The notes under the pieces are model-generated. The model was given only the letters and a program-made list of their open reading frames with translations, was not told where the DNA came from and did not search any database. Source: Bacteroidota bacterium (GTDB taxonomy: Bacteria > Bacteroidota > Bacteroidia > AKYH767-A > 2013-40CM-41-45). Taken from it: a DNA stretch of 61,380 nucleotides. The DNA lies in contig PLYJ01000033.1 of the NCBI GenBank assembly GCA_003151745.1, forward strand, positions 1-61,380, written 5' to 3'. This document shows positions 2,829-58,263 of the stretch, piece by piece. The translations under genes were made by a program, and so were the position numbers. Each line of letters begins with the position of its first letter. Position 1 is the stretch's first letter.

Positions 2829-4139
2829 TCATACCTCTACGGTTTTCAGTTTCGTGGAAAGAAAGGTGATGAGATTATTTTTTAACTCGTCAATTGTAAT
2901 ATGATTGATAACATCAGAAGCAAAGGCGGTGTTGAGCAATGCTCTTGCAGTTTCTTCGCCAATACCCCTTGAACGAAGGTAGAACAAAGCTTCTTCGTCA
3001 ATCTGACCGGTAGTTGCACCATGAGAGCACTTCACATCATCTGCAAAGATTTCCAATTGCGGCTTGGCATTCATGGAAGCATCGTTGCTGAGCAGAATGT
3101 TTTTATTCGATTGATAGGCATTCGTTTTCTGCGCATCCTGTCGAACAAATATTTTTCCGTTGAATACTCCATGCGCCTTGTCATCAATGATTCCTTTGTA
3201 TAATTCATTGCTGTAGCAATTCGGCTTTGCATGGTCAACCAATGTATGATTGTCTACGAGCTGACTACCATTCAATAAATACAAACCATATAGATGAGCA
3301 GTGCCGTTTTCATCATTCAGCACAATATGAAGATTGTTTCGAACAATTTCTCCGCCAAGGGTGATAGTATTAATATTAAAGGTGCTGTTCTTACTAAGGT
3401 ATGCTTCTGTGTGATTGATATGAAAAGCTTCAGCCGTCTCATTTTGAATCTTGTTGAATTCAATCAAAGCATTTTCTTTCACCACAATTTCTGTCACGCT
3501 GTCGGTGAAGTTGTGATTGTCCGCTTGCATGCAATGAAAGCTCTCTACAATCTTTACCTGTGAGCTTTTCTCAGCCACAACCAGGTTTCTCGGATAAGCA
3601 ACTGATGCTGCATTTCTCGCATCACTTACATACAACAAGTGAATCGGCTGTTCAACAACTGCGTTTCCCGGAACGTGAATAAAAGCGCCGTCATGGCTAA
3701 ACGCTGTGTTGAGGGCAATAAAGCTTTCAGTCTTTATAGAAGCATATTTGCCGAAGTGTTCTTTCACTGCAGCGTCATTCAACGATGAGGCAAGCGAAGC
3801 AACAACAACATTCTTCGGAAGATTATTTAAAACAGAAAGTGATTCGTTGTAATGACCGTTTTCAAATACGAGAATAGTAGCCGAAGATCCGCAGATTAAA
3901 AAATCTTTAATGTCTTCCCGCGTTAACTTAAATTTATCTGCAGGAGTGCTACTGCGGAAATCAACCTTGGTAATCGGTAAAACGTTCGTGTATTTCCACT
4001 CCTCATTCTTTGTGGTCGGAAATCCAAGCTCGGCAAAACGCTGAATGGATTCCTTACGCAACAAAGCATGGGAATCTTTCTTCAGATACAAATCCGAGAA
4101 CGAATTAAATTTATTTAGATATTGATCTTTACTTTCCAT
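2829..4139 (-). CDS. sufD: Fe-S cluster assembly protein SufD
   Basis: PQLEIFADDVKCSHGAT and FYLRSRGI. Confidence 0.95.
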   Translation of the reverse strand: MESKDQYLNKFNSFSDLYLKKDSHALLRKESIQRFAELGFPTTKNEEWKYTNVLPITKVDFRSSTPADKFKLTREDIKDFLICGSSATILVFENGHYNESLSVLNNLPKNVVVASLASSLNDAAVKEHFGKYASIKTESFIALNTAFSHDGAFIHVPGNAVVEQPIHLLYVSDARNAASVAYPRNLVVAEKSSQVKIVESFHCMQADNHNFTDSVTEIVVKENALIEFNKIQNETAEAFHINHTEAYLSKNSTFNINTITLGGEIVRNNLHIVLNDENGTAHLYGLYLLNGSQLVDNHTLVDHAKPNCYSNELYKGIIDDKAHGVFNGKIFVRQDAQKTNAYQSNKNILLSNDASMNAKPQLEIFADDVKCSHGATTGQIDEEALFYLRSRGIGEETARALLNTAFASDVINHITIDELKNNLITFLSTKLKTVEV

Positions 4140-4254: not shown

Positions 4255-5007
4255 TTAAACTGCTACTTCTTCTTTTATCCAGTCGTATCCCTTTTCTTCC
4301 AGTTCAAGCGCAAGCGCTTTGGTTCCGCTCTTTACTATTCTTCCATTATATAATACATGCACAAAATCAGGAACAATATAATCGAGCAAACGTTGATAAT
4401 GCGTGATCACAATAAATGAACGTTCCTTATTTCGCAAAGCATTCACGCCATTTGCAACAATGCGCAATGCATCAATATCAAGGCCGGAATCCGTTTCATC
4501 AAGCACAGCAAGAGTAGGTTCCAGCATAGCCATCTGGAAAATTTCATTGCGTTTCTTTTCTCCTCCACTGAATCCTTCATTCACCGAACGCTGCGTCATG
4601 GCTTTATCCATCTCCACCAGTTTCATCTTCTCGCGCATCAGAATGAGAAAATCTTTTGAATCAAGAGGTGCTAATCCTTTTGATTTGCGAACTTCATTGA
4701 GAGCCGTCTTCAGAAAGTTAGCATTGCTCACTCCGGGAATTTCCACAGGATATTGAAATGCCATAAACAACCCTTTGCGCGCCCTGTCTTCAGGAGACAT
4801 ATCAAGAATATTTTCTCCATCAAAAAGAACTTCTCCTCCTGTTACTTCATATTCCTTACGACCTGAAAGTACAGATGCCAATGTACTCTTGCCTGAACCA
4901 TTCGGTCCCATGATAGCATGTACTTCACCTGCTTTTACTTCGAGGTTTATTCCATTGAGAATTTGCTTCTCGTCTACTTTGGCTCTTAAATTTTTTATCT
5001 TTAACAT
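4255..5007 (-). CDS. sufC: Fe-S cluster assembly ATPase SufC
   Basis: GPNGSGKST, GFSGGEKKR and LDETDSGLD. Start moved to ATG 5007 because the track's 5019 start lies inside a repeat arm. Confidence 0.96.
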   Translation of the reverse strand: MLKIKNLRAKVDEKQILNGINLEVKAGEVHAIMGPNGSGKSTLASVLSGRKEYEVTGGEVLFDGENILDMSPEDRARKGLFMAFQYPVEIPGVSNANFLKTALNEVRKSKGLAPLDSKDFLILMREKMKLVEMDKAMTQRSVNEGFSGGEKKRNEIFQMAMLEPTLAVLDETDSGLDIDALRIVANGVNALRNKERSFIVITHYQRLLDYIVPDFVHVLYNGRIVKSGTKALALELEEKGYDWIKEEVAV

Positions 5008-5013
5008 ACAATT

Positions 5014-5505
5014 GTTCAAAGTTCAAAGTTATTCAGTTCAATGTTTAGTTATGGCTGGCTGTGATGTAATCAGGTGCATCCTCTTTAAATTTACTTCCCT
5101 TCATTTCTGAGTTTTGTAAATAACTCATCAGACCGCCAATTAATTTTGATGTTTCCGTTACGAGATGGAATATAGTATCAAATTGACTTTTGTCAATATA
5201 ATTTAAGTCTAAAGCAACATACAATTGCGCTCTTACTTCAGCCGATGATGCTTTTGCAATAGAAAGAAACTGAAGAAATTCCTTGTTACCATTTCTTTCA
5301 AAACCTTCAGCAATATTGGATAGTATTGAAATGCTTGCTCTTCTTATCTGATCCCTCAATCCGAAGTCTCTTACAAAGTTTCCGCTATTAGACACTTTAT
5401 ATATTTCAATGTTAAGCACTCTCGCCTTTTGCCAACAAACCAATTCTTCAAAACTTTTAATCGTACTCATAACATTGAACTTTGAACTGAGTAACCTTGA
5501 ACTAA
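5014..5505. mobile_element. Heptamer-repeat hairpin arms enclosing the four-helix-bundle gene
   Basis: (GTTCAAA)n arm at 5014-5045 and (TTGAACT)n arm at 5471-5505 abut the stop and start codons. Confidence 0.7.
5045..5470 (-). CDS. Four helix bundle protein (23S rRNA IVP family) inserted between sufB and sufC
   Basis: FEEL.CWQKA, LRDQIRRASISILSNIAEGFER and IAKASSAEVRAQL signature. Confidence 0.92.
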   Translation of the reverse strand: MSTIKSFEELVCWQKARVLNIEIYKVSNSGNFVRDFGLRDQIRRASISILSNIAEGFERNGNKEFLQFLSIAKASSAEVRAQLYVALDLNYIDKSQFDTIFHLVTETSKLIGGLMSYLQNSEMKGSKFKEDAPDYITASHN

Positions 5506-5508
5506 TTT

Positions 5509-6960
5509 TTATCCCACACTTCCTTCCAATGAAATCGCAAGCAATTTCTGCGCTTCCACAGCAAATTCCATCGGCAGTTGGTTAAATACTTCCTTACAAT
5601 ATCCGTTCACAATCAATCCTACTGCATCTTCCGTAGATATGCCACGTTGATTGCAATAGAATATCTGATCTTCACCAACCTTTGATGTCGTTGCTTCATG
5701 TTCCACCTTTGCTGTCTTGTTGGAACATTCTAAATAAGGGAATGTATGTGCGCCGCATTTATCCCCAAGCAACAATGAGTCGCACTGCGAGAAGTTACGG
5801 GCATTATCGGCTTTCTTATTAATCTTTACTAATCCGCGGTAGCTGTTATTGCTTTTTCCTCCGCTGATACCTTTTGAAATAATGGTGCTGCGCGTGTTCT
5901 TGCCAAGGTGAATCATCTTTGTGCCTGTGTCTGCCTGCTGATAATTATTAGTTACCGCAACAGAATAAAACTCACCGATTGAATTATCCCCTTTCAAAAT
6001 CACACTTGGATATTTCCATGTGATGGCAGAACCTGTTTCCACCTGCGTCCAGCTTATCTTGGAATTTTCACCGTGACACAAGCCTCTCTTAGTAACGAAG
6101 TTATATATGCCGCCTTTTCCTTCTTTATTTCCGGGATACCAATTCTGCACCGTTGAATATTTCACCTGCGCGTCCTTGTGCGCATAGATTTCTACCACTG
6201 CAGCATGCAATTGGTTTTCATCACGCATCGGTGCTGTGCATCCTTCCAGGTAACTTACAAACGCACCTTCATCAGCAATGATTAATGTTCTTTCAAATTG
6301 TCCTGTTCCTGCAGAGTTGATGCGGAAGTAAGTGCTCAGCTCCATCGGGCAGCGAACGCCTTTTGGTATATAGCAAAAAGAACCATCGCTGAATACAGCG
6401 CTGTTCAAAGCTGCATAAAAGTTATCCGTCATCGGCACTACAGAACCAAGGTATTGCTTGATCAGTTCAGGATGTTCCTGAACAGCTTCACTGAATGAAG
6501 AGAAAAAAATTCCAAGCTTCGACAGCTCATCCCTGAAAGTGGTCTTCACAGAAACGCTGTCAATCACTGCATCCACAGCAACATTTGCCAAACGCTTCTG
6601 CTCTTCAAATGAAATACCGAGCTTATCAAACGTGGCTTTAATTTCAGGATCTAACTCATCGAGGCTTTTCAACTCAGGCTTTTTCTTTGGAGCAGAATAA
6701 TAAATGATGTTTTGGAAATCAATCTGAGGATGATGAATGTTTGCCCATGTTGGCTCTTCCTGGTTTAAGGTAAGCCAATGACGAAACGCCTTCAAACGCC
6801 ATTCCAGCAACCATTCCGGCTCATTCTTCTTAGCTGAAATAAAACGCACAGTGCTCTCGTTAAGACCAATGGGAGCATTATCCGATTCAATGTTGCTCAC
6901 AAAGCCCCACTTGTAATCACTTTGAATGACGTCTTCTAATATTTTTAAGTCCTCAGACAT
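5509..6960 (-). CDS. sufB: Fe-S cluster assembly protein SufB
   Basis: [17 protein letters not shown] and EHEATTSK. Confidence 0.97.
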
Positions 6961-6963
6961 TAT

Positions 6964-7050
6964 TTAGTTCAAAGTTGCTCAGTTCAAAGTTCAAAGTTTG
7001 GTTCAAGGTGTTTTCAACTTTGAACTGATAAACATTGAACTTTGAACTAA
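6964..7050. repeat. Gene-less GTTCAAA-family hairpin
   Basis: 6964-6998 matches the reverse complement of 5471-5505 at 32/35 positions. Confidence 0.9.
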
Positions 7051-7098
7051 CCTTCCTTATTTGGATTGATTCTAAATTAGAAATTCCGGCAAAAAAAA

Positions 7099-7425
7099 TT
7101 ACACGGAGAAACTCTCTCCGCAGCCGCAGGTTCTTGAAGCATTGGGGTTGATGAACTGAAACCCTTTGCCATTAAGCCCGTCGCTGAAATCAAGCTCCGT
7201 TCCTACTAAGTAGAGAAAACTCTTTTTATCCACCACAATTTTCACCCCTTTATCTTCAAACACCTTGTCATCGGGCTTGGTCAGGCTGTCAAACTCCAGC
7301 TTATACGTTAAGCCGGAACATCCTCCGCCTTCCACTCCCACACGAATAAACGAATCAGCAGGACTTTTTTCCTTGCTCATCAGTTCTATGGCTTTTTCTT
7401 TAGCCCTTTCCGTTACGGTAATCAT
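7099..7425 (-). CDS. sufA: A-type Fe-S carrier (HesB/IscA/SufA)
   Basis: GGGCSG and CGCGESF. Confidence 0.92.
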
Positions 7426-7437
7426 TTTTTAAAATAT

Positions 7438-7520
7438 TTAGTTCAAAGTTTCCCAGTTCAAGGTTTGGAAACACAGTCATTACCCCTAACTTTGAACTGA
7501 ACAACATTGAACTTGGAACT
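7438..7520. repeat. Gene-less GTTCAAA-family hairpin
   Basis: ttagttcaaagtttcccagttcaaggtt ... aactttgaactgaacaacattgaacttggaact. Confidence 0.88.
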
Positions 7521-12912: not shown

Positions 12913-12993
12913 GAACGCGGATTTTTATGATGGTTATGCTTTACGCTGATAAAAAATCATACTGTATCTTAATCATCATAAAAATCCGCGTTC
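12913..12993. repeat. 81-bp palindromic element, GAACGCGG family
   Basis: gaacgcggatttttatgatg ... catcataaaaatccgcgttc. Confidence 0.93.
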
Positions 12994-15098: not shown

Positions 15099-15205
15099 AA
15101 AGATGTTTAAGGTTTAATATTTAAGGTCTAGGGTTGTTTTGTGCAATAACATTAAACGTTAAACCTTAAACTTTAAATTTTAAATTCGCGCCAAAGATAC
15201 TAAAC

Positions 15206-29075: not shown

Positions 29076-29189
29076 TGATTTTTGGAAGATGCGAATGTAA
29101 TTGAAAAAAAATGTTTAAAGATTAAGGTTCAATGTCTAAAGTTAGCGGTCATGAACATTAAACATTGAACCTTAAACTTTAAACCGGAA

Positions 29190-39804: not shown

Positions 39805-39897
39805 GGGTAATAGGGTGATTAGGGTAATTAGGGTAATTAGGGTAATTAGGGTAATTAAGGCTGTGGTACTAATTACCTCAATTACCTTAACTACTTC
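39805..39897. repeat. 9-bp repeat hairpin, (GGGTAATTA)n ... (TAATTACCT)n
   Basis: Directly visible; related copies at 38856-38920 and 53396-53444. Confidence 0.9.
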
Positions 39898-47633: not shown

Positions 47634-47716
47634 AGTTCAAAGTTCAATGTTTCTCAGTTCAATGTTAGCGAATTTACTGAGGTTACCTTTGAACATTGAA
47701 TTGAGCAACTTTGAAC
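47634..47716. repeat. Gene-less GTTCAAA-family hairpin
   Basis: agttcaaagttcaatgtttctcagttcaatgtt ... tttgaacattgaattgagcaactttgaac. Confidence 0.88.
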
Positions 47717-50617: not shown

Positions 50618-50791
50618 TTGTGAACTAATTATTAATTTTATATTACAAAATTATGAAGGCGCAAAGTAGAGAAAAAAATAATGTTGCGAATGCGAAGATG
50701 TGCAGATATGCAAATGCCATCGGTCAATCCGCACATTTTCACATTTTCACATCTTCACATCTATTTCTATCTTTGTTGAAAAGACATTAAG

Positions 50792-56140: not shown

Positions 56141-56857
56141 ATGTCAAGTTGGAATAAATGGATTTTAGGAAGTTTAGGCTGGGCTTTAGGTGGTCCGATT
56201 GGAGGCATATTGGGCTTTGCTTTAGGTGCCATTTCAGAAGATGCAACCAAATCATATAAACCGGACACTAAGGCGCTCCCTAATGATTTCAGCGCTGCCA
56301 TGCTGGTATTATGCGCTGCGGTAATGAAAGCTGATAACCGCATACTCAAGTCAGAATTGGATTATGTGCGCCAGTTTTTTATCCGTCAATTCGGTTCCGC
56401 TATTGCAGGCAACATGATGCTTTTACTAAGGGAACTCCTCAAGCAGGATATTCCTGTTGCCGAGGTCTGTACACAGATAAAGCAAAATGTTGATCTCTCT
56501 TCCCGTCTTCAATTATTGCATCTGCTCTTTGGTGTTGCAGCAGCAGATGGCAATGTTAATAATGAGGAAACATCCACAATCCGTCAAATTGCTTACCTGC
56601 TTGGTATTTCAGAAAGGGATTACGTGAGAATACAAAGCATGTTTGTGCAAGACGATAACGCTGCGTATAAAATACTTGAAATTGACAAGTCTGCATCTGA
56701 TGATGACGTAAAGAAAGCCTACCGAAAGATGGCCATGAAATATCATCCCGATAAAGTTTATAATCTTGGCGCAGACTATCAGAAAGATGCGCAGGAAAAG
56801 TTTAAGAAGATCAACGAAGCTTACGAACAAATTAAAAAGAAGCGGGGAATTAATTAG
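56141..56857 (+). CDS. djlA: DjlA-like TerB + DnaJ domain protein
   Basis: GGPIGG TM segment, TerB-like middle region and an HPD J-domain. Confidence 0.85.
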
Positions 56858-56997
56858 GTTTACGGTTTACAAGTTTACAGTTTACGGTTCGCACGGAACA
56901 AGATCACAACTAATAACGTAAACCTTGCAATAGGGCTGTGACAGTCAATCAAGCACAAACTGTAAACTTGTAAACCGCAAACCGTAAACTGTCTTAT

Positions 56998-58182: not shown

Positions 58183-58263
58183 GAACGCGGATTTTCATGA
58201 TGGTTATGATTTACGCGGATAAGAAATCATAATTTATCATAATCATCATAAAAATCCGCGTTC
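58183..58263. repeat. 81-bp palindromic element, GAACGCGG family
   Basis: Close match to 12913-12993. Confidence 0.93.

Follow-up and report, generated by a model that had tools for sequence, protein, structure and literature searches.

The closest described systems come from bacterial rRNA, from retroelements and from intergenic repeats. In Coxiella 23S rRNA, the intervening sequence (IVS) has a length of 428-444 nt, carries the S23p open reading frame (ORF) in its loop and is closed by a 28-bp terminal stem that is cut by RNase III in mid-stem; the long-standing suggestion that this ORF has a role in mobility is taken up again by the authors of that report (PMC4990558). Avd, known from diversity-generating retroelements (DGRs), is described as an RNA-binding, basic pentamer that binds a structured RNA element (10.1101/2023.10.23.563531). 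Genes of the S23p family (PF05635/TIGR02436) are also noted inside cas operons (PMC3936711), and family members have been noted in rRNA insertions of bacteria of the candidate phyla radiation, the family being called functionally uncharacterised. A further subject are the tandem heptamer direct repeats (TAACTGA) of Beggiatoaceae, Cyanobacteria and Bacteroidetes, with a mechanism that is not known (MacGregor 2015, PMC4679880); the text of this paper makes no mention of the four-helix-bundle family. We found no literature that links the family to heptamer arms or hairpin repeats, in a search that had subscription journals and supplements outside its scope, and the notes of the TIGRFAM and CDD curators may say more. 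Here, we describe a gene of this family that fills the loop of a heptamer hairpin between the iron-sulfur assembly genes sufB and sufC of a Bacteroidota bacterium (GCA_003151745.1; 4.6 Mb in 279 contigs, 40% G+C). It lies in a stretch of 61,380 nucleotides of contig PLYJ01000033.1, referred to as the window (Table 1).

Gene and arms fit together base for base. Arm A starts 3 nt downstream of the sufB stop codon (5511-5509) and abuts the ATG of the cassette gene (5470-5468), the TAA of this gene (5047-5045) touches arm B (5045/5044-5014), and after 6 nt follows the ATG at 5007-5005, which is the probable start of sufC and likelier than the TTG of the listed ORF. The gene is thus bracketed between two complementary GTTCAAR arms, which match each other over 26 nt at 88% and over 19 nt at 95% in a repeat search of the window. 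An earlier interpretation from the letters of the window only (the sequence-only reading) had placed arms, ATG and TAA correctly; its statement that operons are left unbroken agrees with sufB and sufC being intact and co-directional with the cassette. In both the minimum free energy and the centroid fold of a 521-nt RNA the two arms pair, and the predicted stem of about 26 bp closes the ORF, with the AUG of the cassette at its inner edge. At gathering scores no Rfam family was found in the window; sub-threshold matches to plant miRNA hairpins (E 0.1-0.7) are chance matches.

The 141-aa product belongs to PF05635 (E 5e-36, 123.5 bits at a cut-off of 33.8) and TIGR02436 (117.6 bits at a cut-off of 24); a match to the NCBIfam model of bAvd is weak (E 5e-4) and below cut-off. 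The AF2 model (pLDDT 88.9) predicts four helices (residues 11-27, 36-58, 62-88 and 94-120) and a disordered, basic tail (121-141). According to Foldseek the modelled protein would be an up-down four-helix bundle like 2GSC and 2RLD (TMt 0.91-0.95 to 2GSC), two solved homologues with five chains per entry each. The model also resembles Avd of a Bordetella phage DGR (4DWL; TMt 0.88, rmsd 1.8 Å), which confirms the fold relationship to bAvd that the sequence-only reading had stated. The family motif, given as GxxRxxxSxxxNxxE in PMC3936711, is found as R44-x3-S48-x3-N52-x2-E55; S48, N52 and E55 are invariant in 58 sequences, and the first motif position is an invariant Q41, not G, in the suf-type subfamily. 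Values of dN/dS between 0.05 and 0.11 in 7 of 12 pairs (those with unsaturated dS) indicate that the cassette protein is under purifying selection and thus maintained, although broken copies exist.

The association of the gene with arms is not restricted to this genome. A scan for the suf-type subfamily, with one genome per species, returned 80 loci from Bacteroidota, Acidobacteriota, Planctomycetota, Verrucomicrobiota, Kiritimatiellota, Chloroflexota and one metagenome-assembled genome (MAG) of Paceibacterota. Dropping two loci at contig edges (L114, L098) and four ORFs of less than 100 aa left 74 loci, and dropping ten that have no neighbour on one side left 64. The arm score, defined as the ungapped inverted match of the 80 nt that precede the start codon to the 80 nt that follow the stop codon, reached the threshold of at least 12 for 47 of the 64 homologues, for 6 of 170 other ORFs in the same loci (some of these six are further family members or their neighbours) and for 0 of 64 shuffled flanks. 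The association of gene and arms holds for Bacteroidota, Acidobacteriota, Planctomycetota, Verrucomicrobiota, Chloroflexota and the Paceibacterota MAG, and both neighbours are co-directional in 49/64. The pattern (GTT-N4)x3 is present upstream in 29 and (AAC-N4)x3 downstream in 36 of the 74 loci; the corresponding numbers are zero and zero at period 6 and five and three at period 8, and the reversed arrangement occurs in 2 loci versus 36. Arms have a median length of 29.5 nt, their median distance to the start codon is 17.5 nt, and the 3' arm lies within 12 nt of the stop codon in 38/54, overlapping the end of the ORF in 25. Thus, a gene-in-hairpin architecture with a conserved arm unit (consensus GTT-Y-N-N-R across the subfamily) recurs across phyla. 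Genomes carry up to 17-19 copies of the family, and some copies are broken: stops lie inside matches, and one copy is broken in the window's genome. No rRNA was found in the 20 non-suf homologous loci examined.

Across 151 Bacteroidota genomes, heptamer arrays of the GTTY type (at least five matches) were seen in 29/119 of those that carry the gene and in 0/32 of those that lack it (Fisher 4e-4), and gene count and GTTY-array count are correlated in 41 relatives (Spearman rho 0.63); these counts were read from tables, and the GTTY pattern covers one class of unit only. GTTY heptamer arrays are thus almost confined to gene-carrying genomes. Lineage-specific heptamer blooms were seen too: genome G018 has 493 matches to the reversed control pattern and G078 a single array of about twenty GTTTTTG units.

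The sequence-only reading had suggested an alignment of the sufB-sufC junction in relatives, and this was done for 30 loci from the family and order of the window's organism. In 6/30 (the window's own, G023, G017, G021, G020 and G027) the junction is occupied by a family gene between inverted arms; in the remaining 24 the spacer measures 2-174 nt and in some of them contains heptamer repeats. Even congeners differ: genus g3 has two filled and two unfilled junctions and genus g9 one filled and two unfilled. An unpublished genome (G038) accounts for one row (L030, unfilled) in each of the junction tables and for one in the co-occurrence tables; without it 6/30 becomes 6/29 and the rest is unchanged. 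The arms of the occupants vary, with GACGAGT units in G027 and octamers in one protein clade at this junction (G017, G021 and three named MAGs); octamer array matches number 128 in G017, 116 in G023 and 6 in the window's genome.

The neighbouring junction varies as well. Here, the sufA-sufB spacer consists of a core of about 44 nt, common to most of the taxonomic family, plus an insertion of about 94 nt, which is the ORF-less hairpin next to sufB in Table 1. Seven close relatives have spacers of 43-45 nt and no hairpin, and genus g7 has a different heptamer hairpin at this site. The insertion is flanked on both sides by AAATAA, a single case in AT-rich sequence, and no consistent flank was seen among the GTTCAA hairpins of the genome. 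Judged from these alignments, ORF-bearing and ORF-less forms have evidently been gained and lost in a patchy manner at the same intercistronic sites. The spacer core itself (window 7051-7098: a T-run, then a TTTAGAAT...AAATAAG-like block) is kept in most genomes of the family and might serve the suf operon as a promoter or in regulation.

Altogether, suf operons host 28/80 subfamily loci, 16 (from other Bacteroidota) at sufA-sufB, ten at sufB-sufC and two at sufC-sufD, and close homologues from other phyla sit outside suf. When the five sufB-sufC proteins of the same taxonomic family were forced into one clade, the cost was 74.8 log-likelihood units (approximately unbiased (AU) test, p 0.0166), for a group that was named after the tree had been seen and on 134 columns only; the C75 paralog of the window's genome, a long branch, was excluded from this tree. 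The rejection of a single clade argues that the occupants of sufB-sufC come from at least two protein lineages. Conversely, homologous cassettes appear at different suf junctions: locus L037 (sufA-sufB) and locus L039 (sufB-sufC) are 78% identical over 472 nt, comprising the ORF and 13-28 nt of each arm. In other pairs (L043/L050; L102 versus L075/L069/L111) homology often ends exactly at ATG and stop codon and the flanks are unrelated. The ORF may therefore move together with its arms or enter the loops of resident hairpins; the data fit either. In two Pirellulaceae MAGs (L042 and L045) the proteins share 85% identity although their flanks cannot be aligned (overall identity 58%), and the same gene thus lies in different contexts. 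In locus alignments of close pairs we saw small indels at the arrays and no clean insertion event.

Two further candidates were discarded. Gap sizes had led us to guess at a second sufB-sufC cassette in Flavobacteriaceae; 8/10 gaps contain a lipoprotein-like ORF instead and only L091 and L116 have a family member. This conserved ORF of 128-140 aa (L069, L075, L085, L090, L096, L107, L110 and L111, at about 4370-4950) has a lipoprotein-like signal peptide. Identical genes 2659 nt apart in L117 (G006:C7; 1557-1904 and 4216-4563) also have identical flanks, and were thus assigned to segmental duplication and not taken as evidence for mobility.

Within the window's genome, the arms of the cassette are one instance of a large family. 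The sequence-only reading had listed three ORF-less hairpins as empty copies of the cassette; all three are present (Table 1) and fold much better than shuffled sequences on both strands (z -3.4 to -5.1). By the GTT spacing described below, the third is co-oriented with the cassette and the two near sufA are inverted, and the 32/35 (91%) match of arm A to the arm at 6964-6998, which we could reproduce, is one to the reverse complement of the 3' arm of that copy. The genome-wide search for arms found 76 clusters with at least three GTTCAA/TTGAAC units, consisting of 56 forward-then-reverse hairpins, 20 one-sided clusters and no reverse-then-forward cluster; the looser pattern GTT[CT]AA yields 90 hairpins, 47 between co-directional, 19 between divergent and 18 between convergent genes, usually filling the spacer. 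Along one strand, both arms of a canonical hairpin show a GTT spacing of 7,8,7,7, and the element is thus polar; the cassette has the same pattern on the minus strand, which bears out the direction that had been ascribed to it. By our reading of the table, 13 polar hairpins point one way (9 exact) and 8 the other (4 exact). Relative to co-directional flanking genes, six canonical hairpins have the same and three the opposite direction, with no clear bias.

Heptamer periodicity extends beyond this unit. There are 522 period-7 and 33 period-8 runs genome-wide (thresholds scale with the period and the numbers are not strictly comparable), the 522 runs fall into 144 canonical heptamers with the GTTCAA family as one among many, and 581/753 strong short-loop inverted-repeat matches have period 7, overlapping registers being counted separately. 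The window itself has heptamer hairpins of other units (GTTTAAR, GTGAAAA-like, GGTTTAC) at 15105-15187, 29113-29184, 50690-50760 and 56857-56983, the last one with a 73-nt loop. A relative of the heptamer hairpins with period 9 lies at 39819-39890, where an array that is complementary in part comes after four tandem nonamers (TTAGGGTAA), and a second hairpin family at 12913-12993 and 58183-58263 is a non-periodic palindromic repeat with arms of 24-28 nt and 93-96% complementarity. On contig C177 (1081-1590, L145), an ORF of 124 aa is preceded by a complete GTTCAA hairpin, and behind it stands a solo reverse array with six units; this ORF has no significant Pfam match, may be another kind of cargo or no gene, and was not counted as second cargo.

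The genome contains six copies of the family, the cassette and five further matches, and all six have inverted heptamer or octamer arms. The sequence-only reading stood to fall with paralogs that lack arms; since the other five are all armed, it survives this comparison. The six sites are sufB-sufC, the small and large subunits of nrd, thyA-folA, cytochrome b and flavoprotein of sdh, S7 and EF-G, and a GNAT gene and an amino-acid kinase gene, with co-directional and functionally linked neighbours at each. The arm types of three copies belong to abundant hairpin families with 78, 43 and 13 loci. In the broken copy on contig C90, a GC-rich palindrome of 14 nt is present three times, once within the reading frame.

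Table 1. Features of the suf locus, ORF-less hairpins with cassette-type arms in the window, and paralogs of the cassette gene elsewhere in the genome
Feature	Position	Strand	Remarks
sufD	2829..4139	-	suf operon member in the window
sufC (ABC ATPase, ABC_tran)	4255..5019	-	downstream host gene; listed ORF start TTG 5019
Arm B, 3' arm	5014..5045	-	complement of arm A; 32 nt; begins at stop codon
PF05635/TIGR02436 four-helix-bundle gene	5045..5470	-	141 aa; fills the loop exactly; Pfam
Arm A, 5' arm	5471..5505	-	GTTCAAR units; GTT spacing 7,8,7,7; 35 nt
sufB (SUFBD_core)	5509..6960	-	upstream host gene; intact, 483 aa, residues 1-483 align with relatives
ORF-less hairpin, sufA-sufB spacer	6964..7050	+	cassette-type arms; inverted relative to cassette
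sufA-like gene (Fe-S_biosyn)	7099..7425	-	Pfam; first gene of the operon stretch examined
ORF-less hairpin upstream of sufA-like gene	7438..7520	+	inverted relative to cassette
ORF-less hairpin	47634..47716	-	same orientation as cassette
Paralog C37			arm unit GAGATNT
Paralog C41			arm unit AGTAYWR
Paralog C75			arm unit octamer GTTCAWTR
Paralog C224			arm unit AAATTGN
Paralog C90 (L006)	3292-3459		broken; between rpsG and fusA; arm unit ATTTCGG plus 14-nt palindrome

We read the locus as an IVS-type cassette in a protein-coding operon: an Avd-fold gene in the loop of one member of a genome-wide heptamer-hairpin family, with MITE-like relatives (MITE: miniature inverted-repeat transposable element). 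We see this reading as evenly poised between right and wrong. The design points to an undescribed kind of operon-dwelling selfish element. The ORF-bearing cassettes would relate to the ORF-less hairpins as autonomous elements relate to MITEs. The analogy with Avd, which binds RNA as a pentamer, would make the protein the trans-acting factor: it would recognise the repeat units, and the hairpins would depend on it for their spread or upkeep. In the polycistronic transcript, the arms could pair into a stem of about 26 bp like the RNase III-cut stem of the 23S IVS, and such pairing would spare the operon polar damage from a cassette between sufB and sufC. Movement could involve recombination between arms and resident hairpins; the chemistry of movement is not known. 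A bolder version, which we offer tentatively and with considerable doubt, is that pentamer and heptamer hairpins are a new class of mobile element without a classical transposase: the cassettes would colonise intercistronic spacers and rRNA helices, and their hairpin derivatives would be spread or maintained in trans, with one subunit for each GTT-Y-N-N-R unit. The arithmetic behind this last idea is that five subunits times 7 nt amount to about one arm.

Several observations weigh against the cassette reading. The paralogs are only 28-39% identical to the window protein and each has a different arm sequence, which argues against recent copying within this genome; filled, empty and absent states do exist at orthologous sites, as the sequence-only reading had it, but not as forms of one unit. 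The arm types of three paralogs (C41, C75 and C224) are nearly private, with 2, 6 and 1 loci, abundant hairpin families without a cognate gene exist in the genome, and only one of the roughly 78-90 GTTCAA-type loci holds a family gene. In the wider family, the arm score is attained by just 8/27 paralogs from relatives; there are several with direct arrays on one side only and some without any. Where homology ends at ATG and stop codon, the arms may not travel with the ORF. Two genomes have arrays and no gene match at E<=1e-5 (G028 with 28 arrays, and G052 with 13 of the reversed control type), and as related genomes are not independent, the co-occurrence tests overstate the association. The fold of the whole cassette RNA has a z-score of only -1.76. 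No catalytic motif is recognised in the PF05635/TIGR02436 family.

Two further elements of the sequence-only reading fared badly. Nothing favours the RNA hairpin intermediate that it had considered: arm mismatches show no sense-RNA wobble bias (61 versus 53, p 0.51; the ungapped register inside repeats weakens this test), and hairpins occur in all gene contexts and both orientations. The absence of wobble bias and the presence of hairpins in all contexts argue against a purely RNA-level rationale. Precise excision, for which it had suggested looking, was not found in contigs of four of the nine DNA metagenome runs that carry the stretch (no RNA run with it is listed); this, the age of the paralogs and the single filled GTTCAA-type locus argue against recent activity. 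In one contig 5045 is joined to 5469, yet 15 foreign letters intervene and the shorter side measures only 25 nt, and joints on the opposite strand are alike; these joints are other hairpin copies and not excision products. Thus, the data support movement on the evolutionary time scale, and do not support a particular mechanism, an RNA intermediate or recent excision.

The strongest rival, which we nevertheless regard as unlikely, is that the protein is a domesticated regulator: a host RNA- or DNA-binding factor that has the heptamer hairpins as its regulon (for mRNA stability, translation coupling or processing) and is itself autoregulated by its arms, with hairpins arising from slippage or other host processes and no role in mobility. 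Strong purifying selection, long residence in housekeeping operons such as suf, arms that abut start and stop codons and the co-occurrence of gene and arrays would all suit a regulator, Avd-type proteins do bind structured RNA, and for heptamer direct repeats beside start codons of other bacteria a role as regulator sites has been suggested (PMC4679880). Of a regulator, however, one would not expect that congeners differ in its presence at a junction, that it arrives there from different lineages or that it occupies three different junctions of one operon. The broken copies, the high copy numbers of some genomes and the presence of the family in rRNA IVSs and cas operons do not fit either.

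In a second rival, which we consider improbable, gene and hairpins are unrelated neighbours: the hairpins would be an independent class of repeats like MITEs or repetitive extragenic palindromes (REPs), moved by another enzyme such as a Y1 transposase (IS200-type or REP-associated tyrosine transposase, RAYT), and the genes would be passengers or would merely lie in spacers that such repeats favour. The genome has seven Y1_Tnp matches, hairpins vastly outnumber genes and are found in all intergenic contexts, the sufA-sufB hairpin of the window was inserted without any ORF, and in G028 arrays are present while the gene is not. The flanks of the six inspected Y1_Tnp genes have non-heptamer palindromes of their own and no heptamer arms, though, and one has a hairpin about 105 nt downstream; a RAYT as driver of the heptamer hairpins was therefore rejected. 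These Y1 genes, of the IS200/RAYT type (on contigs C154, C58, C107, C238, C120 and C34), have short GC-rich palindromes and represent a separate REP-like system. Moreover, neighbouring genes are rarely armed in comparison with the family genes, so that spacers are not generally filled with such arms, the association holds in several phyla, and the ORF fills the loop to the base.

Least probable of all is an ancient vertical resident, an old suf component of Bacteroidota that was lost many times and has its arms as conserved processing or attenuation structure: the share of closest homologues in suf operons, the clustering of context labels on a quick tree of 83 proteins (15 changes versus 29.3 in shuffles) and the single starred clade of the Flavobacteriaceae sufA-sufB copies speak for it, but a single sufB-sufC clade is rejected, three different junctions are occupied, close homologues in other phyla lie outside suf, the other paralogs of this genome are in nrd, thyA-folA, sdh and rpsG-fusA operons, and at one and the same junction arm sequence and even period (7 versus 8) vary with the lineage.

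Most members of one large subfamily are thus tied to a defined, polar nucleic-acid architecture with a GTT core that turns over at fixed operon junctions. The cassette reading fills a blank in annotation with a testable hypothesis, namely that a ring protein which binds the repeats resides in periodic hairpins and perhaps propagates them, and cultured carriers exist among isolates of Flavobacterium, Christiangramia, Aequorivita, Hymenobacter and Nibrella. It suggests a source for tandem heptamer repeats and would explain family genes inside unrelated operons (cas, suf, nrd, ribosomal-protein), where they can be mistaken for components of the system. If the tentative idea of a new mobile class were true, it would provide a function for the ORF of the 23S IVS, unexplained since 1993, and would account for the origin of the puzzling tandem heptamer repeats in Bacteroidota, perhaps also for those in Cyanobacteria and Beggiatoaceae.

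REP/BIME-RAYT systems (BIME: bacterial interspersed mosaic element) and MITEs have in common with the heptamer hairpins that they are short palindromic intergenic repeats in tens of copies, with one gene flanked by inverted copies and with presence/absence polymorphism at orthologous spacers. Unlike in REP-RAYT systems, the gene between the repeats does not encode a Y1 transposase and lacks any known catalytic motif, and the Y1 genes of the genome carry other palindromes; unlike in REPs and MITEs, the hairpin is internally periodic. We could define no target-site duplication for it. The cassette protein is predicted to have the same fold as bAvd of DGRs, but no reverse transcriptase lies beside the cassette and the sole RVT_1 match of the genome is on contig C19, no search for template and variable repeats having been made. 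An integron cassette has a single downstream attC and an integrase in its vicinity, whereas here arms lie on both sides of the ORF. The repeats of MacGregor 2015 are likewise period-7 intergenic arrays near start codons with a patchy spread and a mechanism that is not known; they are direct arrays of a single heptamer, in contrast to the inverted pairs of many heptamer types, tied to a gene family, that are described here. The 23S rRNA IVS of the Leptospira, Coxiella, Brucella and Xanthomonas type differs in its position in an rRNA helix rather than between sufB and sufC in an mRNA operon, and the cassette differs from it in having tandem heptamers with a GTT core as arms and dozens of dispersed ORF-less copies. 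Both have the same protein family in the loop of an element of about 430-490 nt, complementary termini with a predicted stem of about 26-28 bp that encloses the ORF, a sporadic distribution among relatives, a functional host transcript and a mobility that is suspected and unproven. By this analogy, our reading is that the locus would be the operon counterpart of the 23S IVS.

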